Shown here: positions 16,428 through 55,366 of the stretch, piece after piece
Layout: every line of letters starts with the position of its first letter
Position numbering within the stretch: position 1 is the stretch's first letter
Sequence record: PQ821640
DNA: 64,000 nt
From: Escherichia phage SD2
Reading direction: 5' to 3' (one strand)
The notes under the pieces: model-generated
Databases searched by the model: none
The model's input: only the letters and a program-made list of their open reading frames with translations
What the model was told of the DNA's origin: nothing
Position numbers and translations under genes: made by a program

Positions 16428-16435
16428 AAATAATC

Positions 16436-16491
16436 TTGACAAGATAACTAAAATCAGTAAAATGTAATGCATAGGGCGGCAATAGTGCCGC
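16436..16491 (+). promoter_or_regulatory. promoter (TTGACA-16-TAAAAT) plus hairpin GCGGC-AATAGT-GCCGC
   Basis: Read directly. Confidence 0.65.
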
Positions 16492-16514
16492 TCATAGTAA
16501 GAGAGATTATCAAA

Positions 16515-16730
16515 ATGGCTAATATCCGCACACTGTTAAAAAATGCAAGTCAAGTTTTATTTTCAGATGACGAGTATTTCAACAAAGACATTACAGGCGT
16601 GAAAAATTTAAAAGACGTGAAGGATGTTATCGGTATCCGTGGATCTTTACGTAAAGGTGACATATACGGTAACAAGGTGCAATATAAACTATCAAAAGAT
16701 TATGATTTTACTTTGACAATTATTTCATAA
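16515..16730 (+). CDS. hypothetical early protein
   Basis: Start trimmed to ATG at 16515 (MANIRTLL...). Confidence 0.65.
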   Translation: MANIRTLLKNASQVLFSDDEYFNKDITGVKNLKDVKDVIGIRGSLRKGDIYGNKVQYKLSKDYDFTLTIIS

Positions 16731-16737
16731 AACTACT

Positions 16738-16797
16738 TGCAAACCTGGTAAAATAAAGTAAACTATATTCATTAAGGCGGTGGAATAGCCCACCGCC
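16738..16797 (+). promoter_or_regulatory. promoter-like region plus hairpin GGCGGTGG-AATAGC-CCACCGCC
   Basis: 8-bp perfect stem; promoter hexamers less clear (TTGCAA, TAAACT). Confidence 0.45.
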
Positions 16798-16820
16798 TAA
16801 CAAAGAGAAGAGGAAACATC

Positions 16821-16991
16821 ATGATCACTTTCGCTACCCGTGAAGCCGCTCGCAACGTTGCACGTAAAGTTAACGCCGCCAACCTGGGCGCTACGCTTAA
16901 AGCCCCGGTGAAAGATGAATCAGGAAAATGGATCTTTCCTGGTCTGCGTCACGCTGATAAGCTGGGGACATTAACGTTAAAAAATAAATAA
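16821..16991 (+). CDS. small hypothetical protein (56 aa)
   Basis: Hand translation MITFATREAARNVARKVNAANLG...; GAGGAAA SD. Confidence 0.55.
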   Translation: MITFATREAARNVARKVNAANLGATLKAPVKDESGKWIFPGLRHADKLGTLTLKNK

Positions 16992-16998
16992 TATCCGC

Positions 16999-17027
16999 TT
17001 GACAGTAGCATCATTTATAAGTAAAGT
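16999..17027 (+). promoter_or_regulatory. sigma70-like promoter (TTGACA-17-TAAAGT)
   Basis: Read directly; no hairpin of the usual type. Confidence 0.45.
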
Positions 17028-17121
17028 AACAACAACGGCGGGAAAATTATTGGTTATATATTGCAAGCATGATCATAACTTTGGCAAAATATCATAACGT
17101 AGCGTAATCGAGAGGAAAAAC

Positions 17122-17259
17122 ATGAACGCATCACAGCAGATCGAAAAATTCAACCGCAGCAAGGCGCGTAAAAATTGGAACGAAGAGATCACCAAGAAAG
17201 GCGATAAGCGGAACAAAACAAAAAGAGATCGCAGCACAAAAAGACACTGGAACGAATAA
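17122..17259 (+). CDS. small basic protein (45 aa)
   Basis: MNASQQIEKFNRSKARKNWNEEITKKGDKRNKTKRDRSTKRHWNE; GAGAGGAAA SD; terminator immediately downstream. Confidence 0.5.
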   Translation: MNASQQIEKFNRSKARKNWNEEITKKGDKRNKTKRDRSTKRHWNE

Positions 17260-17262
17260 CAA

Positions 17263-17287
17263 AAAGGGCGCAATAAGCGCCCTTTTA
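17263..17287 (+). terminator. rho-independent terminator
   Basis: GGGCGC-AATAA-GCGCCC then TTTT. Confidence 0.75.
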
Positions 17288-17377
17288 GCTTATATAGAGG
17301 CTTGTTACCCATAGGCAATGGTAACGCCAGGGCAAGCCTATAAATCAACGTTAGACGGCTTTACAGGAGCTTTAAAA

Positions 17378-17560
17378 ATGAGATTAGAAGAAATAAGCAA
17401 GGCACTAGCCCAGGGGCAAAGGTTATGCGCCCGATATCGTGATCAATATGGCTTTATAACTAGCGGCGTGATCCTGGGGATTGAAGGCAATAAAATTTTT
17501 ATTGACACGTTGAAAAACGTTGTATATAGTGACAATATAATCTCAATAAAACATATATGA
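17378..17560 (+). CDS. hypothetical protein (60 aa)
   Basis: Start at ATG after CAGGAG SD; track ORF begins earlier at 17318. Confidence 0.5.
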   Translation: MRLEEISKALAQGQRLCARYRDQYGFITSGVILGIEGNKIFIDTLKNVVYSDNIISIKHI

Positions 17561-17568
17561 GGCAAGAA

Positions 17569-17970
17569 ATGAAAAAATTATTGATCGCTGGTTTAATCTC
17601 TTTTGGCATGGTTGGAACATCTAGCGCGGCGATATCCTCCACAGTAGCAGAATTAAGCGCCGTTGATGCAATGGAAAACGTCATGATCATTAATAACGCG
17701 ATCCCCGATGAAATCATGGAGGATTCACACATGATCGCTTATGGTGCTGTTACACAATTAACGGCAAAAATAGATAAATCTATTGTTAATGGCTTAAATG
17801 AAGATGTACCATGTGAAATTATTACCAGTGTGCTAACGACTCAAAATTTTACGCCGTGGCTAAAAAGTATTCAAAAGGTACACAGCACCGCCGCAGATCG
17901 TAGCAATGAAAAACTAGTGTCAGCACTTGCAACGTATACCCTAGCAAAATGTACCGAGATAAAAGGTTGA
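17569..17970 (+). CDS. hypothetical secreted/periplasmic protein
   Basis: MKKLLIAGLISFGMVGTSSAA signal-peptide-like N-terminus; GAGG SD. Confidence 0.65.
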   Translation: MKKLLIAGLISFGMVGTSSAAISSTVAELSAVDAMENVMIINNAIPDEIMEDSHMIAYGAVTQLTAKIDKSIVNGLNEDVPCEIITSVLTTQNFTPWLKSIQKVHSTAADRSNEKLVSALATYTLAKCTEIKG

Positions 17971-17993
17971 CAATATAGAAAGCACGTTATAAG
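17967..17993 (+). promoter_or_regulatory. sigma70-like promoter (TTGACA-15-TATAAG)
   Basis: Read directly. Confidence 0.45.
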
Positions 17994-18015
17994 ATACACA
18001 ACAAAGGAGAACCAC

Positions 18016-18318
18016 ATGAACGGCATAGCTAAAACGTTTTTTCTTTTTTCTGGTGTAAATGATCCATCAATAAAAGTCGATAGTGTAAAAGAAAACAATA
18101 CTATCACCGCTAAATTGTTTCAAGATGAAACAAATAACGTGCTAATCATTAATCTTAAAGAAATAACGAAAGGTTATTATACTATTGCTTACCATGCGAT
18201 CTATCATGCGGGTACTAGTGAGGAAGTGCAAACAAGCAACAACGAAAGCGCGGCGCTACCTGGTGATCTGGTGCTGGGCGTTATCAGTTTAATTGTCAAT
18301 GATTTTTTTAAGGAGTAA
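18016..18318 (+). CDS. hypothetical protein
   Basis: 100 aa; AAGGAG SD. Confidence 0.65.
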   Translation: MNGIAKTFFLFSGVNDPSIKVDSVKENNTITAKLFQDETNNVLIINLKEITKGYYTIAYHAIYHAGTSEEVQTSNNESAALPGDLVLGVISLIVNDFFKE

Positions 18319-18322
18319 AACC

Positions 18323-18418
18323 ATGCCCTATTTACATTTATTTTTCGGTATCTTATTGACAGGATCTTTTTTCTTCTGTATGCTTGTTTCTATTGTAAAC
18401 CACGTTTTAAGACATTAA
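18323..18418 (+). CDS. tiny hydrophobic peptide (31 aa)
   Basis: MPYLHLFFGILLTGSFFFCMLVSIVNHVLRH; AAGGAG SD. Confidence 0.3.
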   Translation: MPYLHLFFGILLTGSFFFCMLVSIVNHVLRH

Positions 18419-18427
18419 GGAAACAGC

Positions 18428-18547
18428 ATGAAAATTATTCCCGTACAGTATAGCGTAATAAATCCAGCATATGAGGAAGGAAGGAAAACAAGCATGGCTT
18501 TATGTTGTATTACTACTATAGCCATGTTATTATATATTGTGTTTTAA
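18428..18547 (+). CDS. tiny membrane peptide (39 aa)
   Basis: MKIIPVQYSVINPAYEEGRKTSMALCCITTIAMLLYIVF; AAGGAAA SD. Confidence 0.3.
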   Translation: MKIIPVQYSVINPAYEEGRKTSMALCCITTIAMLLYIVF

Positions 18548-18576
18548 TAGGTTTTATAGTTGTACGCTTTAAAGGC

Positions 18577-18604
18577 TTGACAATTTTTTGTTATGCTTTA
18601 AAAT
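18577..18604 (+). promoter_or_regulatory. sigma70-like promoter (TTGACA-16-TAAAAT)
   Basis: Read directly. Confidence 0.45.
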
Positions 18605-18647
18605 ATATCTTGAAAACGGCAAAGGCCGCAAACAAAAGGGTAAAATT

Positions 18648-18971
18648 ATGAAATCTGTGATCGGTGTTTATTTGGATAACTCTGATTTTTTCTATCATCG
18701 TGCGCGTTTCCTTGATGCGATTGAAATGATAGAATCAGGCTTTAAAGAGTATCGCCTTGCACATGATGACCTGGAAGCATTACAGGGCAATAGTGTTTTT
18801 ACATTGCAAGCTAAAGCACTATGTAAAAGCCGGATCGACATTGCGAGCAAAAAGATAGAACGCGGCATGTCCTGGTTACGCACCGCAGAAATTAACATGG
18901 GGCAATGGTACGGCGAAAACTTAGAAAATAAACTCACTTTTGTAAATGTAGAAAATCTTAAAGATTATTGA
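18648..18971 (+). CDS. hypothetical protein
   Basis: Start trimmed to ATG at 18648. Confidence 0.6.
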   Translation: MKSVIGVYLDNSDFFYHRARFLDAIEMIESGFKEYRLAHDDLEALQGNSVFTLQAKALCKSRIDIASKKIERGMSWLRTAEINMGQWYGENLENKLTFVNVENLKDY

Positions 18972-19033
18972 TTGACAGCACGCCTGATAAGGAGTATATT
19001 GTATCTCATAGAGCGGGGAAATGGTTTCCCCGC
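18972..19033 (+). promoter_or_regulatory. promoter (TTGACA-17-TATATT) plus hairpin GCGGGGAAA-TGG-TTTCCCCGC
   Basis: Read directly. Confidence 0.65.
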
Positions 19034-19053
19034 CTTAACAGAAGAGATAAGAT

Positions 19054-19338
19054 ATGAAAATCACAAAAGCACTTTTCAACTATGCAGCACGTCGCGGATT
19101 ATGCTTATCCGTTGAAAATTTAGGAAAAGAAGATTTTTTGTGCTTTTGGGAGCTTGAGAATGATAATGAGTGGATCTTCTCTTATTCTATCTGCAAAGAT
19201 CAAAATGGTTGCTTGTTAACCTGGCACGGTAATATCTATTTGCCGGAAGAAATAAAACAAGAATTACCAGGCACGATCATGACTGAGAAACAGCTTAAGG
19301 AAGTGATCAATTTTGTAAGGCAAAACATTAAAAAATAA
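19054..19338 (+). CDS. hypothetical early protein
   Basis: 94 aa. Confidence 0.7.
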   Translation: MKITKALFNYAARRGLCLSVENLGKEDFLCFWELENDNEWIFSYSICKDQNGCLLTWHGNIYLPEEIKQELPGTIMTEKQLKEVINFVRQNIKK

Positions 19339-19339
19339 T

Positions 19340-19400
19340 TTGACAGTAGGCAAACAACGTAGTAAAGTTTACCACATAGGGCGGGAAATGGTTTCCCGCC
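19340..19400 (+). promoter_or_regulatory. promoter (TTGACA-17-TAAAGT) plus hairpin GGCGGGAAA-TGG-TTTCCCGCC
   Basis: Read directly. Confidence 0.6.
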
Positions 19401-19418
19401 AGAATAGAGAGAACTAAA

Positions 19419-19523
19419 ATGATTATTCTTACCATGATGTGCGCGGCGGTTATTATTCCTTTGATAACGCTTATTGTTTCTGAGATCGATGATCTTCTCT
19501 TTGAAAGAAGTTTAAAAAAGTAA
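19419..19523 (+). CDS. tiny membrane peptide (34 aa)
   Basis: MIILTMMCAAVIIPLITLIVSEIDDLLFERSLKK. Confidence 0.4.
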   Translation: MIILTMMCAAVIIPLITLIVSEIDDLLFERSLKK

Positions 19524-19585
19524 TTGACAACGGCTAATAAGCTGATAATATGTATCACATAGGGCGGGGCAATAAGGCAACGCCC
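19524..19585 (+). promoter_or_regulatory. promoter (TTGACA-17-TAATAT) plus weaker hairpin GGGCG...CGCCC
   Basis: 5-bp stem with long loop. Confidence 0.5.
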
Positions 19586-19603
19586 ACTAATGAGGGTAGC
19601 ATC

Positions 19604-19708
19604 ATGTTAGAGAAAATTTTCACGGTTGTAATAGTGGGCCTGGCGTTATCGGTTGGAGTGATTGCAACTATGGCTAACATGATCCTATCTTCCCACGGTA
19701 TCGGCTAA
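19604..19708 (+). CDS. tiny membrane peptide (34 aa)
   Basis: MLEKIFTVVIVGLALSVGVIATMANMILSSHGIG. Confidence 0.4.
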   Translation: MLEKIFTVVIVGLALSVGVIATMANMILSSHGIG

Positions 19709-19722
19709 AAGAGAAACACAAC

Positions 19723-20109
19723 ATGAAAACAGAAATCATTATTGAAATCATCAACGGTTATAAAGAAGCCTTTATTTTTGCTGAATCAGCAAGGGATCAT
19801 GAAGGTAATTTTATTGATAACTTAGACGATTATGATTTTTCAGATCAAGCCCATCAACGGATCATTAATGACGTAGCGGCTTATTGTGATGCCAATGATG
19901 CTGCTATCTCTGAGGCAATGAGCGACGGCGCAACAGCAAACCAGATCGGGAATGATTTACATTTTACCCGTAACGGTCACGGCGTAGGTTTTTGGGATCG
20001 CCCTGAAATATACACTACTAACACCGCCAACCGCCTAACAAATGCAGCTAGATTAATGCCATCGGTGCATGCTTACATTGGTGAAGATAATTTGATTTAT
20101 ATTGAATAA
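19723..20109 (+). CDS. hypothetical protein
   Basis: 128 aa. Confidence 0.7.
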   Translation: MKTEIIIEIINGYKEAFIFAESARDHEGNFIDNLDDYDFSDQAHQRIINDVAAYCDANDAAISEAMSDGATANQIGNDLHFTRNGHGVGFWDRPEIYTTNTANRLTNAARLMPSVHAYIGEDNLIYIE

Positions 20110-20115
20110 AAAGTG

Positions 20116-20174
20116 TTGACACCGATCCCCAATATGGTATTATTTACCACGTAGGCGGGAAATGGTTTCCCGCC
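20116..20174 (+). promoter_or_regulatory. promoter (TTGACA-16-TATTAT) plus hairpin GGCGGGAAA-TGG-TTTCCCGCC
   Basis: Read directly. Confidence 0.65.
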
Positions 20175-20198
20175 AGGTAATCAAAAAAGGTAAACATT

Positions 20199-20588
20199 AT
20201 GCGCAACCTGATTTCTGTTTCTAACGTTGAAAAATTTCAATCCTTGCAGGGTATCATTAACAACGTAGCGCCTTTTTTAGTCAATGGCTTGATTGCAAAG
20301 ATGAAAAATAAACATCATGCGGCATGGTCTGCTTATTGCTTTGATAATGATGAAAAAGCGGCTGAAATGATGTTAAATATGCTTTTGGATAGTGTAGAAT
20401 CATCTTTACCGGAAAACATCGCAGAAGAGATCACCTATCGTTATAATATGGCGATCACTTACCAGGAGGTTGCGCAATTCAACATGATGGATGATGACGA
20501 ACAACAGGATCAAGAAATGTTCTGGGAGTATGCAGATCGTCAATCGGCTTTTGATGAAAAGTTAGCGATGTATTATAACGAATATTAA
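20199..20588 (+). CDS. hypothetical acidic protein
   Basis: 129 aa. Confidence 0.7.
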   Translation: MRNLISVSNVEKFQSLQGIINNVAPFLVNGLIAKMKNKHHAAWSAYCFDNDEKAAEMMLNMLLDSVESSLPENIAEEITYRYNMAITYQEVAQFNMMDDDEQQDQEMFWEYADRQSAFDEKLAMYYNEY

Positions 20589-20602
20589 TACACGGTAAAA
20601 GA

Positions 20603-20630
20603 AAGGGGCGCACTAAGCGCCCTTTTTTGT
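20603..20630 (+). terminator. rho-independent terminator
   Basis: GGGCGC-ACTAA-GCGCCC then TTTTTT. Confidence 0.75.
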
Positions 20631-20973
20631 ATTCTTTTTTCACGATGGAAACAACACGTAAAGAATAGGCGTAAAGGTGGCGTAAAACAGCCTAAAACCG
20701 ATTATAACCGCTTAAACAAGGTAGGGATGATTAATCACCTTACCAGGATGAAAAAGCCGTTATAAAGCTATCTAGAGCGTTTAAAGCACATAGGAAATAA
20801 TTTGCTTTTTATCTTGCCTTTTATTCTGCTTTTGATTATTATTATGGAACGGGCGGCACCTGGGAGCAGGGGAAGATAATCACCGGACGATCTTATTATA
20901 TATTGATAGCTTCCACCTATCAAACAACAAAACATTAAAGAAATAAACTATCAAATCTTTACAATCTCACCTA

Positions 20974-21033
20974 TTGACACCGGATCGCCCTTATACTAAG
21001 ATGTATCACGTAGGCGGGAAGTGGTTTCCCGCT
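20974..21033 (+). promoter_or_regulatory. promoter (TTGACA-17-TAAGAT) plus hairpin GCGGGAAG-TGG-TTTCCCGC
   Basis: Read directly. Confidence 0.55.
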
Positions 21034-22065: not shown

Positions 22066-22890
22066 CTTAAGACCATCTAACCTATAAAATAATAAGTTAT
22101 CTAACTAAATTAAAACTAATTATCTCACCTTTATTTATAACTTACTGTTACTATCTCATTGATAACCTTATATTAAACAACAATAACTAATATAAATTAT
22201 TACTAAGCTAAATATAATCTATCTAACCTTTAAAACTATAATTATAATCTATCGAATTGTTGCACAAAGTAACTATTAAATTGTTAGTAACATTACTAAA
22301 TAATTAATATCCTATCTATTTATGATCTAATCTTTACCTTCCTATTTATTACCTAAATAATCATTTCATACCGTAATCATTTCATACAATAATTATAACA
22401 AGAAATATAATTAACAAGCGTATCATTAGCAGCCTATGCCGGACACATAGGCGGCTAATAATAACGCAACTACACACCCCACATAATAACCATCACCGAT
22501 AGTTATTATTTGTGCTTATGTAGCTTGCAACAACTGCAAGCGCAACAATATACATGGTATATTGTATTCCCTTACATTGTTGCGGTGCGTTATTATTAGC
22601 TAATGTTTGGAACATTGGCTATAATATAAGCTATCCAATAATAAACATAGTGAATAATAACCCTGATGATCATAATGCGCCACCTTCCAGGGGGCGCTAT
22701 GTGAACACAAAGAAATCTTTCTTGTCAAGAAAAATATTACCATTATTGCGCAAAATTATTTACATCTGAATAGATGGTTTTTCATACTATTGCCCCATAT
22801 AGCCTATCATTTGTTGAGCCTACTTTCTTAAAAGCGCAATAAATTAGAATTATCTTGATTTTTAGGGCGTTTTATAGTATAGAAAATATG

Positions 22891-22915
22891 CAAATGATAA
22901 TCATTATCAGTTATC
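22891..22915. promoter_or_regulatory. Fur-box-like site AATGATAATCATTATC
   Basis: 16 consecutive matches to the E. coli Fur consensus as I recall it. Confidence 0.5.
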
Positions 22916-23070
22916 TTCCACGGGTGGCACTATTTCACGCAGGATCATTTCATTTGGCAAGGTGTATATAGATGTTTAGACTTGCCAAGCCATTGATTTG
23001 CTTAGAATTTATCTGTTTTGTTGTGAGTAATGCCTTTCTTGCTCAGAAAATAATCAAAAGTCTTATAAGT

Positions 23071-23114
23071 CATTGAATGATAATGCAAATGATAATAATT
23101 CTCATTGATATTTG
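23071..23114. promoter_or_regulatory. degenerate tandem Fur-box-like motifs
   Basis: GAATGATAATGCAAATGATAATAATTCTCATTGATA. Confidence 0.4.
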
Positions 23115-23512
23115 AGGGGGACGGTCAGCAGAAATCGGGGGGCGCTGAAAATCGCGTTAAGCACCTCTCGCAAGCGAGCAGTATTTTGCGGCAAGTTATT
23201 GATATTATTGACTTTACGCTTATGAAAAGGGGGTGTGTCGAAATAAATCGGGTATACCGGAAAATTTTTGTGGCATAGATATTTATTTGTCTATATTATG
23301 TACAAAGGGGTGTGTTAAAAATATTAGGTATATATAGAATAATTGATAGGGAAATCCTATACTAAATCCTTCATTATTGCAGCGGGTGAAAGACAGAATC
23401 GAAGATGCAAATAATGCTTGCATTGGATAGAAATGTCTGTATAGTGGTTTGCATACCGCGCACGACGCGTTTCCATTTTCAATAAAATGTTAGCATTATG
23501 GGGAGGTAGAAA

Positions 23513-29733: not shown

Positions 29734-29981
29734 ATATCAAAGATGTTGTAGCATACGTAGCAGATGAAGTTAAAAACCATACAAGTTTACTGAAAGTAAT
29801 GGTTGTGGTTAAAAATGGCATTGGACAAGTAAACGTACAACATGTCTTATCTGATACTGTATATAATGTGTTTGAATGTAAAGACACACCTCATGGAGTA
29901 CGTGTGGTGTATATTGATAACAATTTCAAAGAGTGTGTGAGACATACCTTAAAAAATGAGCTAAGGATCACAACCTTATGA
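29730..29981 (+). CDS. hypothetical protein
   Basis: 83 aa. Confidence 0.65.
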   Translation: MNIKDVVAYVADEVKNHTSLLKVMVVVKNGIGQVNVQHVLSDTVYNVFECKDTPHGVRVVYIDNNFKECVRHTLKNELRITTL

Positions 29982-30151
29982 GTTATTATGTTGTACCTTA
30001 TGCCAATAAGTGGAGAGTAAGAGAAACTTGTTTTCTATTCTCCTGGTGGGCTACATTCGGAGATGGTTGTGGAAATGATACAGGAAAGCCTGTAGAGTAT
30101 GACACAAAAGAAGAATGTGAACAGTGGATAAAATTAACACAAAGATGTTGA
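29978..30151 (+). CDS. small hypothetical protein (57 aa)
   Basis: MSYYVVPYANKWRVRETCFLFSWWATFGDGCGND... Confidence 0.45.
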   Translation: MSYYVVPYANKWRVRETCFLFSWWATFGDGCGNDTGKPVEYDTKEECEQWIKLTQRC

Positions 30152-30176
30152 CACGATCTTAACTTCTTGTTAGTAT
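30148..30176 (+). promoter_or_regulatory. sigma70-like promoter (TTGACA-17-TAGTAT)
   Basis: Read directly. Confidence 0.5.
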
Positions 30177-30204
30177 CAATGTGTACTAACGATAAGGAGG
30201 GTTT

Positions 30205-30429
30205 ATGAAGTCTGTAAACAAGTTGCAACAATTTTTGTTATCAACAGCAATCTTTTTGCTTTTGTTAATTGGTATTCTGTATGGTGCATCTAACTTATAC
30301 AATCTACACAACAATGTAGAACATAACATAGAGAAGTGCACCATTCTAAAACACAATAAACAAGCAGAAGATTTCTTAAAGAATAAATGTTACAACTACA
30401 TTGATTATGAGGAGACAAATAATGATTAA
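30205..30429 (+). CDS. membrane-anchored small protein (paralog of 25496..25714)
   Basis: AAGGAGGG SD; TM helix then CTILKHNKQAEDFL. Confidence 0.65.
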   Translation: MKSVNKLQQFLLSTAIFLLLLIGILYGASNLYNLHNNVEHNIEKCTILKHNKQAEDFLKNKCYNYIDYEETNND

Positions 30430-30664
30430 AGAATTAGGCATGCGAGTATACAGTGAGTGGACTCCAAGCAATGGCCCAGGAGTTGTTGCAGCTAAGTGTA
30501 TCAATGGTCGTATTGAGTACCTGGAAGGTTATGAAGATAATGAAGAGTTAGTAGATTATGCTAAATCTTTTATTGAAGATGATACAGACTTTATTGTATT
30601 ATATGATACAGGAGAGTTAGAGTATGGATATGATGGAGATGGGGATATCTTTGAACTTCAATAA
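30422..30664 (+). CDS. hypothetical acidic protein
   Basis: Start trimmed to ATG at 30422 after GAGGAGA. Confidence 0.6.
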   Translation: MIKELGMRVYSEWTPSNGPGVVAAKCINGRIEYLEGYEDNEELVDYAKSFIEDDTDFIVLYDTGELEYGYDGDGDIFELQ

Positions 30665-30746
30665 GAGTAGTAAGTAAGATATAAAGAGTGTATAGTTAGT
30701 AACATTACATATACTCTTTCCATGTATAACATGGAATATTCTCTAC

Positions 30747-30805
30747 CTCGCTATCGCTCGGTATATAAGATTAGGGTAGCATGTTTTTTACGAAAAGTAA
30801 AACTG
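30747..30805 (+). repeat. about 60-bp element, second copy of the one at 5398..5458
   Basis: CTCGCTATCGCTCG...TTAGGGTAGCATGTTTTTT...GAAAAGTAAAACTG versus CTCGCTTCGCTCG...TTAGGGTAGCATGTTTTTC...GAAAAAGTCAATACT. Confidence 0.6.
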
Positions 30806-30859
30806 TTTGTACCGATTGATAGCAGGTTTTTAATAGATTTTATCTATGAGGAGTAGAAA

Positions 30860-37268: not shown

Positions 37269-38258
37269 TCATTCCTCCATACACTTAAGAATATGTGCAA
37301 TGACAGGTATAGTCCAACCATTACCTAACATCTTATATGCTTGTGTGTTACTACTTACTTTAAAGTAATCATCTGGAACACCTTGTAAGCGGCAACACTC
37401 TTTAACCGTTAACTTTCTATAATGCACACCTTCACTCAATTTTTCAAAGGCATCCAGATATCTTCCAGGTGGAATGTAAGCTAATAGTACGTCTTTCGGC
37501 ACAGTCGTGAGGCAACGAGTTTTTTCACTGTCCTGAACTTCCAAGCAATGTACCAAACGATCAGTTTTAGATGTACTACGTTTGCCATTTTCATTAATTC
37601 TACGCCCATATATTGCCGCTGGATAAAAAACCAGTTGTCTGCGACTCTTTTCAAAATACTGTTCTATATTACCACCTTTGGCATAATTTGCATCTATGCA
37701 ATACGCCTTGTCCCTGTCTACAATACTATCATCTTCAATGATATCTTGCAACACTTCATTGGTAATATCCCAAGGCTTTATTTCCCAATTGCACCAGTAT
37801 AAACGTTGTCTATTCTGTGCCGTGAAATCTGCGGAGTTAATGAACACAGGATCAACACCTAAGTAACTTGTGATCACGTTTTCCCACTCCACCTTCATCT
37901 TAACGTTTTCAAGCATGAACTTAACATTAGGGTTAAACTTTTTAATATGTTCAAGGATTTCAACATATTCAAAGAACAGTTTAGATCGCGGATCTTGAAA
38001 GTTCAAACCCTTACCAGAAGAAGAGAAGCCTTGGCACGGACTACCACCTAGCAAAAGATCAATTTCTCCCCACGGGATATCCCATTCTCTCCATTTTGTA
38101 ACATCACCTAATTGAACAATATCTGGAAAATTGGCTTGGCTTTCAGCTATGGCAAATTTGTCCAACTCTGAAGCATAATACTTATCTACTTCAATACCTG
38201 CACTTTTTAGTGCAAGCATTCCTCCTGACATACCATCAAAAAGACTTAAAACTTTCAT
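37269..38258 (-). CDS. DNA (cytosine-5)-methyltransferase
   Basis: Motif I FDGMSGG, motif IV GGSPCQGFS, motif VI ENV. Confidence 0.9.
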   Translation of the reverse strand: MKVLSLFDGMSGGMLALKSAGIEVDKYYASELDKFAIAESQANFPDIVQLGDVTKWREWDIPWGEIDLLLGGSPCQGFSSSGKGLNFQDPRSKLFFEYVEILEHIKKFNPNVKFMLENVKMKVEWENVITSYLGVDPVFINSADFTAQNRQRLYWCNWEIKPWDITNEVLQDIIEDDSIVDRDKAYCIDANYAKGGNIEQYFEKSRRQLVFYPAAIYGRRINENGKRSTSKTDRLVHCLEVQDSEKTRCLTTVPKDVLLAYIPPGRYLDAFEKLSEGVHYRKLTVKECCRLQGVPDDYFKVSSNTQAYKMLGNGWTIPVIAHILKCMEE

Positions 38259-40422: not shown

Positions 40423-41168
40423 TAGTCCTCCTCTAAAGTAGAATAAAATTGTAACGTATTTGAATCATCAAAATATGCAAAGGTTAAATTACCATTGAAC
40501 ACAGATCCAGTATCCATATATACCCTATTACTGCTAATTACAGGTTTAGGAACATAAGAATGCCCGTGAAATACATAATCTACTCCTGAAACTCTAGGAA
40601 GAAGAATCCCTTCAAGGGCGCAATCTATCATATCACGATCCCACATTAAAGATTCTGTGAATCGAGATACTTGTTCTTTATTCATATTCGAACAAAATGG
40701 CAAAACTTCCGTCACTGGTAGATGTTCCAAAACTGAAGGATATCCTCCGTGAATAAAGCCTAGTTTCATATTACGATAGTTGACAACAAGTACAACAGGT
40801 AAATCTTCTAGCATCAAAGCAAGAGCAGTTGCACCTTCTTCTCCACACTCATTTAGAACTGTATGGCCTCCGTTCTGAAACCAACATTCGTAATATCGCC
40901 TATCACCTTCTAGCAACCCTTTAATCATCATATCTTCGTGATTTCCACGAATAGCATAGCGATTTAGCTTTCTGGTGAATTCAACGGTACAACGAAAATT
41001 CTGCTTGCCGCGATCTGTAAGATCTCCTAAAGATACAACAACATCTTGATCTCGAATACCTAAAGTATTAACACCTTTCTGGTATAAATCAAAGCAACCA
41101 TGTAAATCACCAATAATAAACAGGTCTTGATCATCTTTTACACTAATTTCTTGATATACTAGCATCAA
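40422..41168 (-). CDS. Ser/Thr protein phosphatase (calcineurin-like metallophosphoesterase)
   Basis: GDLHGC, GDLTDRG, GNHE motifs. Confidence 0.8.
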   Translation of the reverse strand: MMLVYQEISVKDDQDLFIIGDLHGCFDLYQKGVNTLGIRDQDVVVSLGDLTDRGKQNFRCTVEFTRKLNRYAIRGNHEDMMIKGLLEGDRRYYECWFQNGGHTVLNECGEEGATALALMLEDLPVVLVVNYRNMKLGFIHGGYPSVLEHLPVTEVLPFCSNMNKEQVSRFTESLMWDRDMIDCALEGILLPRVSGVDYVFHGHSYVPKPVISSNRVYMDTGSVFNGNLTFAYFDDSNTLQFYSTLEED

Positions 41169-41491
41169 CTCTCCTCAAAATCCATAAGTATAAAGATATT
41201 AACTTTACCTTCTATATTATGTTCTACAACAAGATCTGCAAATTCTTTGTAGGCTTTTTCTTCTATTTGCTCAATGTGAGACGCTACATCTTTGTATATA
41301 GCGTCACCATCTACTTTAACAAGGAGGAATAGAGATCTTACCTCAATCTCTTTATTTTTACGGGGTAGAAAATCGACGGCTTCTTGTATACGCCAGCCGA
41401 GATACCCTGGAGTCCTTTGAATATCCTCCAAATGACTTTCTAAGATTTCCCTTCCTTTGTCTATTAAAGCCTGTTCTGTCGTTATTTTCAT
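41165..41491 (-). CDS. hypothetical protein
   Basis: 108 aa. Confidence 0.65.
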   Translation of the reverse strand: MKITTEQALIDKGREILESHLEDIQRTPGYLGWRIQEAVDFLPRKNKEIEVRSLFLLVKVDGDAIYKDVASHIEQIEEKAYKEFADLVVEHNIEGKVNIFILMDFEES

Positions 41492-41501
41492 CCCCTTCTC
41501 C

Positions 41502-42074
41502 TTAATGTGTTAATGAAACTGCGTAACTAAACACAGGTTCAGATATTACATCGGCTACAGTAATAAAAACGTCCTCATCTTGCGTTGTTTCTACACGACA
41601 TACAGTTACACCATTTACCACAAATTCAACGCAATGTGGAATATCTTCACAAACGAATGTAGTGTAAGTAACACCCAAAGCATCATACAAAGATTTAACA
41701 GTATTTGCAAGTGCCGCAGTTTCTTCTTTTTCTGAAACAATGAATGCTGTAACAACAAGATTGTTTGCATAGTTTAGACTGTCCTCTATAGCCAATGATT
41801 TACAAGGTAGTAATGCAAAATATTTACCTGGTTTAATCAGACCTGCTTCCCATTGATTCAAAATTGCCTGGGATGGTTTAGTAATATAAAACAGATTTTC
41901 ACTTGGGTTATCAATATTACTTCTGGCAATACAACGTGAAGGATTATTAATATCAAACACATGATCAAAATCTACACAAACTGGTAAACTGAAAGGTGTA
42001 AATTTTTTACCTAATAATCCTACTGCTGACAATATGTTTGCTGTGCTTATCTTCCCGTTAAAAGCTAAACGCAT
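41502..42074 (-). CDS. hypothetical protein
   Basis: 190 aa. Confidence 0.7.
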   Translation of the reverse strand: MRLAFNGKISTANILSAVGLLGKKFTPFSLPVCVDFDHVFDINNPSRCIARSNIDNPSENLFYITKPSQAILNQWEAGLIKPGKYFALLPCKSLAIEDSLNYANNLVVTAFIVSEKEETAALANTVKSLYDALGVTYTTFVCEDIPHCVEFVVNGVTVCRVETTQDEDVFITVADVISEPVFSYAVSLTH

Positions 42075-42085
42075 ATTTAACTCCT

Positions 42086-42289
42086 TTAACTAGCAACCGT
42101 AACTTCCGAACTTTCTTCTTTCGTACTATCTACGATATGCCTGGTGGCAATATACGAGACTTGCCAGTTACCATCTGGTGTAGTCTCAATAAGTACCCTA
42201 TCTACTTCGAGAAAATGCAAAAATTCAACCATCGCTCGCTTCGATAGGAATTGTTTTTTAACAGTCTCCTCAAAAGATTGAACTGCCAT
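42086..42289 (-). CDS. hypothetical protein
   Basis: 67 aa. Confidence 0.55.
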   Translation of the reverse strand: MAVQSFEETVKKQFLSKRAMVEFLHFLEVDRVLIETTPDGNWQVSYIATRHIVDSTKEESSEVTVAS

Positions 42290-42298
42290 GTTTCCTCC

Positions 42299-42961
42299 TT
42301 ATTTAATATCCAATTTTGCACAAAGACGTTGTACCGCTTTGGCATCGAACAAACTCCCACGAATAGTTCTCTTTCCTGATTCATTCAGATGCTTTGCAAT
42401 CGTCATATATGGCGTTTTACAAGCTCTGTATGCAACTAAAGAATCTTTTAAAGAAAGCGCAAACTCTTTTGAGCGTTTTGCTTCTTCTGTTTTCGTATAA
42501 TCTGTTCTTTTGTATTTAGGGTTTGCTGCACCAAGAAGCGTTCCCTTCGCTTTTGCTACCTTAAGGCTCTTCTTAACACGATCAGATATTGCACGAGCCT
42601 CTTCTTCTGCCAGAACTGCTAAAATATTTATTATCATATTTTCAGCGGAGGGCATAGTTGCTATCCGTACATTAATCATCTCTAACAAGGTTGCAACAGA
42701 AGCTGTGTTACGTCCCAGACGGTCAACCTTAGCAACAACAAGTGTAGCACCTGTTTCTTTGCAAAGATTAACAGCTTTTACAAGCTCTCTACGTTGCTTC
42801 CAATCGCCTTTACCAGAATAAAACTCTGCAAAGCTACCTACAATAGTATAATTTTCTTGTGAATCCAGGAAGCGTTGGATATCTGCTTCCTGTGATTCTA
42901 TACCATACTGGTTGCCTTGTTGTTTCTTCTTAGAAAGTCGATGATACAGTACAAACTTCAT
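42299..42961 (-). CDS. small serine recombinase (resolvase/invertase family)
   Basis: N-terminal YHRLSKKKQQ with catalytic Ser, VAKVDRLGRN motif, C-terminal HTH-like segment. Confidence 0.85.
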   Translation of the reverse strand: MKFVLYHRLSKKKQQGNQYGIESQEADIQRFLDSQENYTIVGSFAEFYSGKGDWKQRRELVKAVNLCKETGATLVVAKVDRLGRNTASVATLLEMINVRIATMPSAENMIINILAVLAEEEARAISDRVKKSLKVAKAKGTLLGAANPKYKRTDYTKTEEAKRSKEFALSLKDSLVAYRACKTPYMTIAKHLNESGKRTIRGSLFDAKAVQRLCAKLDIK

Positions 42962-43018
42962 AACACCCTCCTGTTCTGTTGCAGGAAGTATGCACTACCT
43001 TAATGTTAAAGTCAACAG

Positions 43019-43234
43019 TTAAGTAGTGGTAATATCATCCTCTTGAATATCAGGGTCAACTTCTGCAAAGATAGCCTCTACAGGAATTTCTTCACCTGCT
43101 ATTCTAGAAAGAAGCACTGAACCAATAGCTTTTGCGTGTTCTTCGGATTCCGCATAAACATTAGTTCCTGTGTCTTTTTTCTTAGTTTCGTTAAAATATA
43201 CCAGATAGTAATTGTATGCCATTATTCTTCCCAA
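43019..43234 (-). CDS. hypothetical protein
   Basis: 71 aa. Confidence 0.55.
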   Translation of the reverse strand: MGRIMAYNYYLVYFNETKKKDTGTNVYAESEEHAKAIGSVLLSRIAGEEIPVEAIFAEVDPDIQEDDITTT

Positions 43235-43473
43235 TCGTTGTTACGAGCACTTTCAAGAACCTTGACAACTTCTGCGTACTCTACAGCTAAACCAGCACAC
43301 ACTTCAGCTTGTTTTGCAATTGCTTGCTTAAAGAACATAGCGATTGCAACACTCTGTGTTGTGTGAATGTTATCTGCTTTAGTTGATACATGAAGATCAA
43401 AATCTTCTTCATCAAAGGTGAGTTCCATAGTAACAATAAATTTCTCGGTCATAAAAATGCTCCTCTTAAACAA
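43222..43473 (-). CDS. hypothetical protein
   Basis: 83 aa. Confidence 0.6.
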   Translation of the reverse strand: MFKRSIFMTEKFIVTMELTFDEEDFDLHVSTKADNIHTTQSVAIAMFFKQAIAKQAEVCAGLAVEYAEVVKVLESARNNDWEE

Positions 43474-43975
43474 AATAGAAAGGTTGAGTTAAACCCAGCC
43501 TGTTTTTTGGGTCGTAGACGTACCAAGCATATGCTGTCTTGTCAGTACCACCTGCAACAAAAGATGGTCGTTCAGAAAGAACAATCAAATTTGTTGGTGG
43601 ATTCTGTTTATGGAATTCCCTTCGTTTAATAGACTCTAGGAACCCAAGACGCAACAAGTATATGCAAACGTCTGCTTCTTTTAAGCTCTTTTGCAAGAAC
43701 TCAAGTGCAAGTCTGAATGGTGGATTTGTGATTATAATATCCGGCTTAGTATGCCATTCGTGGTTAAAATAATCCTTCCCTTCTTCTAACTCACAATATT
43801 CTGATCCTTCTGGAAAATATTGATAAATTGCAGCAGCAGCGCCTTTACATGGTTCTGCAAAAATAAAACCTTCTTCTTTAAGGTTATTAAAATCTATTAC
43901 ACTAAATAATGCATTTATACATTTTTGTGGAGTAGGATAGTAATCAGTTGGTGGACGATCATACTTATTTGCCAC
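43466..43975 (-). CDS. DNA N6-adenine methyltransferase (phage type)
   Basis: Catalytic NPPF in DIIITNPPF and an N-terminal Tyr/Pro-rich segment. Confidence 0.75.
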   Translation of the reverse strand: MANKYDRPPTDYYPTPQKCINALFSVIDFNNLKEEGFIFAEPCKGAAAAIYQYFPEGSEYCELEEGKDYFNHEWHTKPDIIITNPPFRLALEFLQKSLKEADVCIYLLRLGFLESIKRREFHKQNPPTNLIVLSERPSFVAGGTDKTAYAWYVYDPKNRLGLTQPFYFV

Positions 43976-44393
43976 TACTTAAAATCTCCTCTTTTGTGAT
44001 TTCAGGGTTTTCTTCAAAAACCATAATATCTCTTAAGAACGTTAATTCTTCCATAGATACTGGTATTGTATCTTCTTCTGTTTTTCGTTTACATAAGTCG
44101 TCAAGAAAGTTTTTAACGCTTTCTGACACATCATAAAATTTCAACAGTTGATAATCACAGGAGGAGATCCTATCTAGTTCTAACATTCTTTCTAAGATAT
44201 TTTCTGTGTTGCCGTACAACACACGAACTTCTCCGAAAGGGTTGACTAAATATTGTGAAGTTCTGAACCATCCCTTTTTAGATACAGTGTAACGCTGTTC
44301 TGCTAAACTTTCAATAAAATTTTTAGCCCTTTTACAGTTTTGTTCTAAAGAGTAGTAGGCTTTTTCTACAAAGATTACAGGTACTGGTAACAT
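43965..44393 (-). CDS. hypothetical protein
   Basis: 142 aa; AGGAGGA SD. Confidence 0.65.
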   Translation of the reverse strand: MLPVPVIFVEKAYYSLEQNCKRAKNFIESLAEQRYTVSKKGWFRTSQYLVNPFGEVRVLYGNTENILERMLELDRISSCDYQLLKFYDVSESVKNFLDDLCKRKTEEDTIPVSMEELTFLRDIMVFEENPEITKEEILSSGK

Positions 44394-44407
44394 ATCTCCT
44401 CCTAATA

Positions 44408-44424
44408 ACCCCCGTGAGGGGGTT
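44408..44424 (-). terminator. intergenic hairpin (possible attenuator or processing site)
   Basis: AACCCCC-GTGA-GGGGGTT; no clear T-run. Confidence 0.35.
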
Positions 44425-44433
44425 TATGTTAGA

Positions 44434-45087
44434 TTAATTATCAGAGGATACTTTATCAAGTTTTTCAGAGACTGTCAATACTTTTTCTTGTGATTCTTTC
44501 ATTTCTGCTAAAATACTTTCAGCTTCATCACTATCAGGATCACCAGTCAACAGCATACTAATTAGTTGCTCCTTGCTGAAGTTCAGAATATCTTCCGCTG
44601 TTAGCTCCAGTTGTTCTTCAATCTCTTCGACAAAAGTTTCACCGCCTGAAAAAGCATCTCGTAGTTTTGCAACTTCCATCGCTTCTTCTGGGGTTGCCCC
44701 AGCGTCTAAAGCTGCTAAAGCAAAATCTGCCCCACTACCAACAGCATAGTAATCTTCAGTTAAAGGATATGCTCGCGTTGGATTATTACCCTCGTGCATA
44801 TAAATTTTACCGTCTGGGTGAACAACCAATGCCACAAACTCTTCATCTTCTTTATCAGGATCTGACTGGATCACCAAGCCTGGGATTGTCTCTTGTGCTG
44901 CCTGGCACTGTAAGTTTTGTTCGAACCAAGAAAAGAAAGTCAGGATAGAAGACAGACGTCCTGCACCACCAACAAGGTAATCCCCAATTTTACGCACTTT
45001 CTTGAAATTTAAAGTGTCTACTCGATTACCTACTGTTACTTTACCGTCAGATAGAATTTTGTTATGTGTTGCAATAATTGTTGTCAT
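44434..45087 (-). CDS. HslV-like N-terminal-nucleophile peptidase with acidic C-terminal extension
   Basis: MTTIIATHNKILSDGKVTVGN, FxxVRKIGDYLVGGAG and AVGSGADFALAAL resemble E. coli HslV as I recall it; Thr2 as putative nucleophile. Confidence 0.7.
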   Translation of the reverse strand: MTTIIATHNKILSDGKVTVGNRVDTLNFKKVRKIGDYLVGGAGRLSSILTFFSWFEQNLQCQAAQETIPGLVIQSDPDKEDEEFVALVVHPDGKIYMHEGNNPTRAYPLTEDYYAVGSGADFALAALDAGATPEEAMEVAKLRDAFSGGETFVEEIEEQLELTAEDILNFSKEQLISMLLTGDPDSDEAESILAEMKESQEKVLTVSEKLDKVSSDN

Positions 45088-52742: not shown

Positions 52743-53064
52743 TTAAATCCTCCACAATATCACACATTGCTTTTATTGTATCAATGTGTTTTCTCTCCAT
52801 ACCATTCTCTATGTAAGCCTTCTCTAATGCGTTCCATACACTCTTTGTGAGTAGTACAGTAACCTCTCCATCATATCTTGCCCTGGTTAAAGCATACCAG
52901 GTAGCTTCGGGATCATTGGAAGCCCATATTTCAACACTGGAAAATTGAAAACCTGCAATATAATGGCAACACCAATCGAATGTAAAATCTTTACTATCTA
53001 CCAGTGTATAATTTCCCCAACGTCTTTGTGGTGTTGCTCCAGGTAATACAACTAATGTAGGCAT
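52729..53064 (-). CDS. hypothetical protein
   Basis: Track ORF trimmed to ATG at 53064, which follows the nrdA terminator and an AAGGAGG SD. Confidence 0.55.
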   Translation of the reverse strand: MPTLVVLPGATPQRRWGNYTLVDSKDFTFDWCCHYIAGFQFSSVEIWASNDPEATWYALTRARYDGEVTVLLTKSVWNALEKAYIENGMERKHIDTIKAMCDIVEDLNGSD

Positions 53065-53074
53065 ATTCCTCCTT

Positions 53075-53096
53075 AAGAAAGGGGGACAAAGCCCCC
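53075..53096 (-). terminator. rho-independent terminator after nrdA
   Basis: GGGGGCTTTGTCCCCC then TTTCTT on the minus strand. Confidence 0.7.
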
Positions 53097-53104
53097 TAGT
53101 TTCA

Positions 53105-55366
53105 TTACATCTTACAAGCCTCACAACCAGATTCTTCATCTTCTTGAGCGAGTGAGGTTGCCGATTTTGTTCTACTATTTAGATAGTACAAAGATTTACC
53201 ACCAAGTTTTGCAAACTGAAGGATATATTGCATTTCTGATTTAATGGATAAACGACCACCTTCCATCTTAGAATAGTCAATCCACTTATCACATGATGCA
53301 CCTTGATCTAAGAATTTAGTCAATAATCCATATGCTTCAGCCATATCTTTATCTGGCGTATCCCAAGCCGATTGGTAAATATCTTTTAGTTTATCATAGT
53401 CTGGCACAATAAATAGGACATTACCTTTTTGGCTTTGTTTATAAACTATAGTATCACGTACAGGATACACAGAGTTAGTCGTATTACTTACGAGACTACT
53501 GGACTCATTCGGAGCAATAGCTGCTAATACACTATTTCGGATACCGCCTTGTGCAATGATATCTTGTCGTAAACCTTCCCAATCCATTTTAAGTTTAAAA
53601 TTGCCAATATCGTCTACAGCTTTAGCGTAGGTATCAATAGGCAACCATCCTTCAGGCCATTTGGTTTTATGCATCCATTCTGCATTACCCTTCTCTTTTG
53701 CCAAACGAAGAGAAGCTCTTGCTAACCAGTAATAATGCCTTTCTGCTAATTCGTGAATTAGTTTTTTGCCGTAAGGATCTGAATAAGTAACAAAATTACT
53801 TGCCAGATAATGTGCAAGGTTTGTAATACCTACACCGATAGACCTACGTGCTTTAGCAGTGATTTCGTTATGTTTAAACGGATACTGCATTGTTTCAATA
53901 ACATTATCAATAGTTAGAACTGTATAATATGCAACATCTTCATATTCTTCTGGTGTAACACGACCAGCTACAATAGAAGACAGGAAGCATAATGCCAATT
54001 CTTGATCTTCTGTATTCTCACCTGTGAAAAGATCAGTTATATTGTGAAATGCTTTCGTAGGTAAGAAAATTTCTTGGCACAAGTTTGACTGATAAATAAC
54101 ATCCTTAAACGGAGTATGCCTATTAGCATTATCCGCAAAGAACATATAAATACGTCCTGTCTCTGCTCTTTGTGTAATAATTTCTGCCAGAAGATCTCGT
54201 GCTTTTACAAACTTCTTCTTAATACGTTTGCGACTAACTTTTTCATATACTTCTTCAAACTCTTCCTCGCTTTTATAAAGCGCCTCATAGAGTTCTGGTG
54301 CTTCGTCATAACTAACTAGCATCCAATCTTTACCTTTTGCTGCACGGCGCAGGAAAGCATTGTTTACTACGATAGAGTAATCAAGTTTATCTACTCGTTT
54401 TTCACTAACAGTAGTTGGGTTTTTCAAACGTACCAGATCTTCAAAATCAGGTTCTAATATTGTAAACGTTACTGTTGCACTTCCACCACGACTTGCTTGT
54501 TTTGATGCTCCAACACTTGTCTCCATCCATTTCAGATATGGTAAAAGACCACCGTGAACAATACGGTTGTTCTTAACACCTTGTCCTGTAGCACGGGTTT
54601 GGAGGTTAACACCAATACCTGCATTATTCAATGTATATTCATGCGCAAGATAGTTAGCAATTGCTAAAGATTCTGCTGTATCATCTGCTCTAAACAGACA
54701 ACAAGAAGCACTACCTTTAATCTTAGTACGCAAAGTTGTTAAATAAGGCGATGGTAAATTAATCTTAAGATCACTTACGTAGGTATATAGACGTTTAATG
54801 TCTTCTACTCTGCGATCTTTTGGTTGAATTTCCATTACCTTCATTGCTACACCAATGAATAAAAACTGTGGTGATTCAAAAACAACATCATTGATCGCAT
54901 CTTTCACAAGATACTTATCAACCATCTGGCGCAGTACGGAATAACCATAAGTTAGGTTTTTATCGTGATTGACAATTTTACCAATCTCAATAATTTCTTC
55001 TTCTGTATAATCCATTTTTCCCCAATAGCCTTTACTTACAGACATATTGTAGAAATCCAGGAGGGAGGGGATATTGTGATATCCCCCATGAGCCTGTTTA
55101 TAAATCATACCAAGAAGTAACCGACCTGCCATATCACTATATGCCTGATCTTTCTTATCAATACATGCTGCTATCATAGCTTTATGTAAATCACGAGTAG
55201 GCACACCGTCGTAACAACGTTTAACAGCTTCAAGTTCAATTTCAGACCAATTTAATTTACCAGCAGCAAACTCTGACCATTTACGAAGTTTTTCTGGATT
55301 AAATTCTTCTTTCTTGCCGTTTGTTTTTGTTACATAACGGATAGATTTGCTTAGATACTGAGTCAC
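53105..55366 (-). CDS. nrdA: ribonucleotide reductase class Ia alpha subunit
   Basis: 753 aa aligning along its length with my recollection of E. coli NrdA; C-terminal CEAC pair; apparent GTG start with AGGAG SD. Confidence 0.95.
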   Translation of the reverse strand: MTQYLSKSIRYVTKTNGKKEEFNPEKLRKWSEFAAGKLNWSEIELEAVKRCYDGVPTRDLHKAMIAACIDKKDQAYSDMAGRLLLGMIYKQAHGGYHNIPSLLDFYNMSVSKGYWGKMDYTEEEIIEIGKIVNHDKNLTYGYSVLRQMVDKYLVKDAINDVVFESPQFLFIGVAMKVMEIQPKDRRVEDIKRLYTYVSDLKINLPSPYLTTLRTKIKGSASCCLFRADDTAESLAIANYLAHEYTLNNAGIGVNLQTRATGQGVKNNRIVHGGLLPYLKWMETSVGASKQASRGGSATVTFTILEPDFEDLVRLKNPTTVSEKRVDKLDYSIVVNNAFLRRAAKGKDWMLVSYDEAPELYEALYKSEEEFEEVYEKVSRKRIKKKFVKARDLLAEIITQRAETGRIYMFFADNANRHTPFKDVIYQSNLCQEIFLPTKAFHNITDLFTGENTEDQELALCFLSSIVAGRVTPEEYEDVAYYTVLTIDNVIETMQYPFKHNEITAKARRSIGVGITNLAHYLASNFVTYSDPYGKKLIHELAERHYYWLARASLRLAKEKGNAEWMHKTKWPEGWLPIDTYAKAVDDIGNFKLKMDWEGLRQDIIAQGGIRNSVLAAIAPNESSSLVSNTTNSVYPVRDTIVYKQSQKGNVLFIVPDYDKLKDIYQSAWDTPDKDMAEAYGLLTKFLDQGASCDKWIDYSKMEGGRLSIKSEMQYILQFAKLGGKSLYYLNSRTKSATSLAQEDEESGCEACKM

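Follow-up and report, generated by a model that had tools for sequence, protein, structure and literature searches.

A small serine recombinase of lytic phi92-like phages, with a predicted early promoter and a possible role in the resolution of phage DNA

The window, by which we mean the whole stretch of 64,000 nucleotides from Escherichia phage SD2 (PQ821640) analysed here, contains a gene for a small serine recombinase. The best remaining explanation of this gene, to which we assign a probability of roughly 0.4, is that an active recombinase made early in infection performs resolution, i.e. deletion, between directly repeated copies of one phage site. The substrate would then be phage DNA and the reaction would be resolution. 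The gene is already known, since it has been annotated in GenBank from the publication of the phi92 genome onwards, as gp053 with product 'putative recombinase, resolvase family protein / DNA invertase'. Mentions of gp053-type genes in the literature are at the level of annotation only, and other papers on phi92-like phages overlook the gene and declare a recombinase absent. What is added here is largely negative, as neither signs of an invertase nor of an integrase were encountered, but it includes a domain assignment, a conserved predicted early promoter, kinship with plasmid recombinases and a relocation in Phapecoctavirus. Several large lytic phage lineages retain an intact site-specific recombinase under a predicted early promoter.

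The stretch belongs to a Justusliebigvirus (phi92-like, Stephanstirmvirinae), a lytic E. coli myovirus of ~148 kb. Window positions 41000-45000 are matched at full coverage and 95-99.4% identity by 55 phage records, all Justusliebigvirus (megablast). The phi92 genome is linear with direct terminal repeats of 343 bp; window position 22817 corresponds to phi92 position 1 and the window runs from phi92 ~124.4 kb through the genome end to ~41.5 kb. The terminal repeat is present as a single copy (window 22817-23159), hence the window derives from a circularised or concatemer-type assembly. The recombinase ORF exists as the first-pass annotation had described it (Table 1). Its product differs in one residue from phi92 gp053 (FR775895 / NC_023693; 99.5% amino acid identity), the gene of which has the same neighbours and the same orientation.

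Table 1. Position of the recombinase gene, its predicted expression signals, neighbouring genes and Fur-box matches in the window
Feature	Position	Strand	Basis
Small serine recombinase CDS, 220 aa, phi92 gp053 orthologue	42299..42961	(-)	ATG-start ORF; PF00239 match
Shine-Dalgarno GGAGGG, 4 nt 5' of the ATG	42966..42971	(-)	Read from sequence; phi92 RBS annotated at the same place
Predicted sigma-70-type promoter TTGACT-17-CATACT, in the 57-bp gap 5' of the recombinase	42987..43015	(-)	Consensus scan
67-aa small ORF (phi92 gp052), adjoins the recombinase on its 3' side	42086..42289	(-)	ORF
NPPF-motif DNA methyltransferase (phi92 gp056), 0.5 kb upstream	43466..43975	(-)	PHROG 799, E 4.6e-56; no Pfam match
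C5-cytosine DNA methyltransferase (phi92 gp043), 4 kb downstream	37269..38258	(-)	PF00145, E 1.6e-43
Fur-box matches	277, 12420, 12473, 22045, 22890, ~23075-23100

Residues 4-141 match the Pfam domain PF00239 'Resolvase, N-terminal domain' with an E-value of 8.4e-22 and a score of 78.3 bits, the cut-off being 23.3. The catalytic serine that had been noticed near the N-terminus is S10, within YHRLS, and the DRLGRN motif noticed along with it is found in the translation at residues 80-85. An alignment of 34 sequences, reaching down to 25% identity, has Q24, E46, R81, R84, E121 and R128 invariant, and Y6, R8, S10 and D80 at least 90% conserved. Equivalents of residues R8, S10, D67, R68 and R71 of gamma-delta resolvase are all present, as R8, S10, D80, R81 and R84. 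The AlphaFold model (mean pLDDT 90.3) displays the expected alpha/beta catalytic domain in residues 1-141, with the long E-helix formed by residues 108-138, and then a four-helix C-terminal domain. The protein thus has the full catalytic set and the predicted fold of a serine recombinase, and we infer that the enzyme is active. The IS607 type of serine transposase was ruled out, since it has a MerR-like HTH at the N-terminus, whereas here the protein opens with the catalytic domain (from residue 1-4) and binds DNA through its C-terminal part.

The DNA-binding domain comprises approximately residues 150-220 and has, in the AlphaFold model, helices at 152-170, 172-180, 185-194 and 207-216. The C-terminal HTH of the first-pass annotation is confirmed in so far as the domain is helical and of the DNA-binding kind, but a Pfam profile search gave no HTH_7 match in it. 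Instead, 25 of the 34 relatives match the PF07508 'Recombinase' domain (best E-value 3.3e-7), of which the first helical part alone is represented in the 220-aa protein. The best overall fold match is Bxb1 integrase (E 2.4e-7), followed by the catalytic domain of Sin. The proposed class, resolvase/invertase-type, was therefore correct as far as it implied a small serine recombinase with complete catalytic residues, but it does not describe the PF07508-like C-terminus of those 25 relatives, nor does it fit Bxb1 as best fold match. By sequence and model, the protein looks like a cut-down version of the integrase type, consisting of the catalytic domain and the start of the recombinase domain, without zinc ribbon or coiled coil.

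This likeness to the large serine integrases (Bxb1, phiC31, TP901-1) extends to the C-terminal motif IA..LN..G..T.RG....V.R, which is integrase-like and lies where PF07508 matches. The longer spacing between the catalytic serine and the next conserved glutamine in the 34-sequence alignment is presumably integrase-like too. However, large serine integrases measure 450-600 aa and have a full recombinase domain, a zinc ribbon and a coiled coil, which the phage recombinase lacks. PHROG 125 'DNA invertase' (E 1.5e-31) and PHROG 95 'integrase' (E 1.5e-25) are both matched. Membership of the NCBIfam families CcrB, Mpi, YneB and XisF was rejected, with scores of 35.7, 33.5, 29.8 and 25.8 bits versus cut-offs of 900, 272, 175 and 375, respectively.

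No characterised enzyme is a close relative. Sequence matches to proteins with solved structures are weak, namely Sin with an E-value of 1e-5, Tn3 with 2e-5, gamma-delta with 7e-5 and Gin with 8e-4 to 1e-3. The Sin, Tn3 and gamma-delta resolvases share the catalytic fold and residues (Foldseek E ~1e-6, TM ~0.7 over the catalytic domain), with only ~25% sequence identity, and deletion between direct repeats, as performed by these enzymes, is the type of reaction proposed here. They differ in having an HTH_7 C-terminus and a multi-subsite res beside the gene, whereas the phage recombinase has a PF07508-like C-terminus and no res was found. Neither a transposase nor a plasmid backbone, as is characteristic of the Tn3, gamma-delta and Sin types, accompanies the gene; its surroundings, in a lytic phage, are a module for nucleotide metabolism and replication. 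The Gin, Hin, Cin and Pin invertases are of the same catalytic superfamily and of similar size, and Gin and Cin are phage-encoded too, but their DNA-binding domain is of a different type and the sequence match is weak (Gin ~1e-3).

The 57-bp gap upstream of the gene holds the predicted promoter and a weak 6-bp inverted repeat; an array of dyads was not seen in it, and a res site may lie at a distance or within a coding sequence. Six other lineages, those of L017, L018, L019, anhysbys/ESCO13, Vibrio phage P1 and Shewanella phage 1/4, have TTGACA or TTGATT at 17 bp from a -10 element directly 5' of the orthologue. A near-consensus sigma-70 promoter with 17-bp spacer is thus found in seven out of seven lineages, by which early expression as a transcription unit of its own is predicted. 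The recombinase is probably transcribed by the host RNA polymerase and, hence, made early in infection, as far as promoter sequences tell. A dyad common to the upstream regions of the seven lineages was not found, the shared feature being the sigma-70 promoter.

Both methyltransferases between which the first-pass annotation had placed an accessory cluster are real and lie on either side of the recombinase with other genes in between, nine ORFs separating it from the C5-cytosine enzyme; several GenBank records name the NPPF-motif enzyme an N6-adenine methyltransferase. The term accessory cluster is only partly apt: the block is collinear in all 55 close genomes and syntenic as far as Shewanella phage 1/4, but the recombinase gene itself has another position in the sister genus Phapecoctavirus. 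A functional link between recombinase and methyltransferases was not found, and known defence-system models gave no match for the recombinase or its small neighbours. Metagenomic phages that are 78%, 72% and 60% identical, and also Shewanella phage 1/4, retain the gene order PhoH, HslV-like, (methyltransferase), recombinase, (phosphatase), DprA-like, which identifies the recombinase as an old resident of the replication and nucleotide-metabolism module.

The gene is present in 55 of the 55 close genomes and has homologues in 161 phage records, including those of Phapecoctavirus (56% identity), Klebsiella (78%), Citrobacter Tr1 (51%), Vibrio, Shewanella and Cellulophaga phages. Orthologues of the neighbouring genes are in place in Phapecoctavirus anhysbys (gp051 59%, gp054 66%, methyltransferase 86%, PhoH 76%), but the recombinase slot is empty. 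The only other gene of the block without counterpart at the empty site is gp052, given that gp051, gp054 and gp055 are matched in a tblastn search of the anhysbys segment; an ORF of similar size follows the recombinase on its 3' side in L017 and L018 as well. The anhysbys recombinase, 56% identical, is encoded on the opposite strand at a distance of 16 kb, where it directly follows the phi92 gp013 homologue. Empty slot and distant copy together indicate that the gene has moved at least once. Alignment of occupied and empty sites of Justusliebigvirus and Phapecoctavirus revealed no flanking repeats and no shared core or motif. Vibrio phage P1 has the recombinase in yet another gene context.

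The closest cellular homologues were identified by tblastn in 72,556 plasmids and are 34-36% identical over 97-99% of the length, the C-terminal domain included. Among the best plasmid matches are non-mobilisable plasmids of 5.8-7.3 kb from Marinovum, Phaeobacter and Synechococcus. The other recognisable genes of the Marinovum and Phaeobacter plasmids encode a replication initiator and ParA, whereas the remaining genes of the Synechococcus plasmid are unannotated. On small Rep/ParA replicons a recombinase typically resolves multimers. These plasmid 'recombinase family proteins' (Marinovum pMaD11, Phaeobacter pP18_i, Synechococcus pIITB3_2, Hymenobacter, Paracoccus) have the same two-domain layout as the phage protein and, like it, are encoded by free-standing genes with a non-coding region upstream. 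They differ in being carried by plasmids, where the expected role is multimer resolution, and there is no shared DNA site that could be transferred to the phage. A dyad TGTATAAGAAC-N~20-TTTATAC was observed between parA and recombinase at ~4290-4330 in pMaD11 (L009) and ~5010-5050 in pP18_i (L011), and is a candidate crossover site for that roseobacter family of mini-plasmids.

Under the proposed resolution of phage DNA, host RNA polymerase would read the gene from its own sigma-70 promoter early in infection. The resolvase-type catalytic domain and the short, integrase-like helical DNA-binding domain would then act on a single phage site, with dimers, concatemers or the two terminal repeats as the source of its direct copies. 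Either circular or concatemeric replication intermediates would be monomerised, or the enzyme would help to close the linear genome, which enters the cell with terminal repeats of 343 bp, into a circle. Repeats would not be expected in a single copy of the genome, because one site per genome would suffice. The resolution reading is favoured because homologues of as little as 25% identity keep the catalytic residues and the structure model is confident, because none of the 55 close genomes lacks the gene and 161 phage records have it, because the nearest cellular homologues reside on tiny Rep/ParA plasmids, two of which share the above dyad upstream of the gene, and because seven lineages have a predicted consensus sigma-70 promoter immediately 5' of it. 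We also count in its favour an independent guess in a genome paper (PMC10282059), made without data, that the resolvase keeps concatemers as single genomes.

The probability is kept at this tentative level by several observations. A res-like site was not found; the 57-bp gap is filled by the promoter, and the Phapecoctavirus gene abuts its neighbours. Resolution is also weakened as a reading because the gene changed position between sister genera, as a selfish or accessory gene would. The terminal repeats of the rV5-like phage LL12 are, with 459 bp, also short, and the phi92 annotation lists no rV5 or PVP-SE1 counterpart of gp053, though it does so for the neighbours; since rV5-like relatives with short terminal repeats seem to be without the gene, a life style with terminal repeats does not require it. 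Moreover, we know of no obvious need for multimer resolution in lytic phages that package from concatemers, which counts against this reading.

The role proposed is that of plasmid multimer-resolution recombinases and of the Cre/lox system of P1. In Cre/lox, a phage-encoded site-specific recombinase closes terminally redundant DNA into circles and resolves dimers. The analogy is functional only: Cre belongs to the tyrosine recombinases and comes from a phage-plasmid that is temperate, and no lox-like site is known here.

The main rival is a semi-autonomous accessory gene, or moron, whose target would lie outside the replication of the phage itself; it might rearrange DNA of the host or of competing mobile elements, or serve its own relocation, and confer a conditional advantage. 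We regard this as unlikely. It would agree with the gene's own host-type promoter, with the empty Phapecoctavirus slot and the 56% identical gene 16 kb off, next to the gp013 homologue and in opposite orientation, with the different context seen again in Vibrio phage P1 and with the fact that no cis site was found beside the gene. Against it stands the single fixed position in Justusliebigvirus, in the 78%, 72% and 60% identical metagenomic phages and in Shewanella phage 1/4, which points to long vertical inheritance. In addition, defence-system models were unmatched, the two insertion sites lack common repeats or a flanking motif, and no host target is known.

A bolder proposal, for which we see rather little chance, is that a mini integrase-like recombinase would, in the first minutes of infection, perform RecA-independent circularisation or monomerisation at or near the 343-bp repeats, or would rearrange DNA of the host or of rival elements. 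If true, either a Cre/lox-like system in virulent phages or such rearrangement of host or rival DNA would represent a new role of site-specific recombination in the lytic cycle.

A DNA invertase of the Gin/Hin/Cin kind or of the Bacteroides Mpi kind, flipping a phage segment or promoter such as that of tail fibres, is what the label of PHROG 125 suggests, which most GenBank records copy. There is also the weak match to the NCBIfam Mpi master invertase, 33.5 bits versus a cut-off of 272, and phi92 has several tail fibres and tailspikes. However, a screen of the 14 kb around the gene for repeats, inverted as well as direct, gave chance-level matches only. A comparison of the whole phi92 genome with itself yielded eight significant inverted pairs, all of them GC-rich terminator hairpins and none flanking the gene, and otherwise only the 343-bp terminal repeats and hairpin repeats of the early region. 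The earlier failure to find flanking inverted repeats is confirmed, to a distance of 14 kb from the gene and, terminator hairpins apart, for the complete phi92 genome.

Orientation was compared among isolates by means of three tiles of 22-25 kb, which took in all but ~75 kb of the genome; one of them, window 1-22000, gave many split matches and was too mosaic to score. Window 22001-46000, the 24 kb around the gene, is found on one strand in every one of ~55 Justusliebigvirus genomes; records in which it matches at two places are splits at the record start. The 25-kb module of tail fibres and tailspikes (phi92 70001-95000) likewise occurs on one strand in all ~55 genomes, without orientation differences, and the 10-12% of it that is not covered corresponds to replacement of tailspike cassettes rather than inversion. 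The sole unclear split, in phage J-01, is collinear by annotation, and the window aligns to phi92 wholly on the plus strand. The suggestion that a nearby segment is inverted is not upheld, given that inverted crossover sites are lacking and orientation is uniform over the two regions compared; a search for crossover sites near the gene and for heterogeneous orientation found neither, as far as assembled genomes show. With tail-fibre differences that are cassette replacements and no HTH_7 domain, we consider an invertase very unlikely, the reading being largely refuted already by these genome comparisons.

Highly improbable is a domesticated DNA-binding regulator or architectural protein that has lost recombination: several lineages have short inverted repeats across the promoter or 5' leader, as would fit autoregulation, but R8, S10, D80, R81, R84, E121 and R128 are all kept in very divergent homologues, which is unexpected if catalysis is dispensable.

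Weakest of all, and in our opinion barely credible, is an integrase- or excisionase-type enzyme that enables lysogeny or plasmid-like carriage: it draws on the PHROG 95 'integrase' match (E 1.5e-25), on a fold and a C-terminal domain type common to large serine integrases and on lifestyle-prediction tools that treat recombinases as temperate markers, whereas the protein of 220 aa has neither zinc ribbon nor coiled coil, the domains by which large serine integrases choose att sites, the 3-kb recombinase region was not matched anywhere among 5,426 complete E. coli genomes with their plasmids, all 84 of 84 homologue clusters from a search of 5.8 billion proteins are on contigs of phage size, at most 157 kb, and isolation papers describe the phages as strictly lytic.

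This has a practical side, as phi92-like and phAPEC8-like phages are frequent candidates for phage therapy. Screening and lifestyle-prediction tools raise the alarm of a temperate phage upon any gene for a recombinase, an invertase or an integrase. Since signs of integration and inversion are absent in the comparisons made, the gene need not disqualify phi92-like phages for therapy.

A number of other features were observed in the window, and of these the structured element, the Fur boxes and the paired blocks described below could not be tied to the recombinase. A non-coding element of ~180 nt (window 22425-22605, plus strand) is located ~210 bp upstream of the start of the terminal repeat. 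Phapecoctavirus, Citrobacter phage Tr1 and Klebsiella phage KP2025 have it too, with ~80% conservation. In an alignment of five sequences it shows six helices with 50 pairs, 97.9% of cells being paired, and 13 pairs with compensatory double changes; the observed value was reached in none of 500 shuffles, and slid-partner controls lie far lower. Rfam gave no match in the terminal region, this element included. The element probably represents a structured RNA of a new kind, or else a DNA structure, tied to the genome end, to packaging or to replication. The same base-pair covariation led us to reject it as a site for the recombinase, as it indicates folded RNA or DNA and not protein half-sites.

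The E. coli Fur-box consensus GATAATGATAATCATTATC has six matches with at most three mismatches in the window (Table 1), versus 0.03 expected. The box at 22890, which agrees at 17 of 19 positions, and the one at ~23075-23100 lie inside the 343-bp terminal repeat and are kept in Phapecoctavirus and a Klebsiella phage. This suggests iron-responsive, Fur-controlled early promoters in the phage subfamily, as predicted from the motif matches. The ATGATAATCATT motifs, which agree with the Fur box in 15-17 of its 19 positions, were rejected as crossover sites, since they are too short. At the left boundary of the terminal repeat, TGTTGAGC is invariant across genera and probably marks the terminase cut region. 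The structured element and the Fur-box cluster are probably more novel than the recombinase itself.

Two copies of a conserved non-coding block are found in the same orientation at window ~5360-5460 and ~30740-30830, 25.4 kb apart, with the early gene cluster and the terminus between them; Phapecoctavirus has the block as well. Its core is TTAGGGTA.CAT.TTTTT....AAAAGT.AA, the minus strand of which reads TTGACT-17-TACCCT. As recombinase sites these paired blocks, at ~5.4 kb and ~30.7 kb, were discarded for want of a consistent dyad. Direct repeats that contain hairpins, for instance TATCACATAGGGCGGCAATAGTGCCGCTCA, occupy gaps between small rightward early genes at window ~12880-21000 (phi92 138335-146453). 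Repeats of this type are partly conserved in Phapecoctavirus, and the region is highly mosaic among isolates.

Window 52759-53138, between the genes for two ribonucleotide reductase subunits, is without the HNH endonuclease gene of phi92 (gp074, phi92 29975-30631), which looks like presence and absence of a homing endonuclease. Finally, the records of 'Campylobacter phage' A150, A145, C3, A110a and B15 (MG065639, MG065645, MG065656, MG065689 and MG065650), with C. jejuni as listed host, are 98% identical to phi92-like or phAPEC8-like coliphages; by this identity, either a mistaken host label or contamination of the samples is probable.
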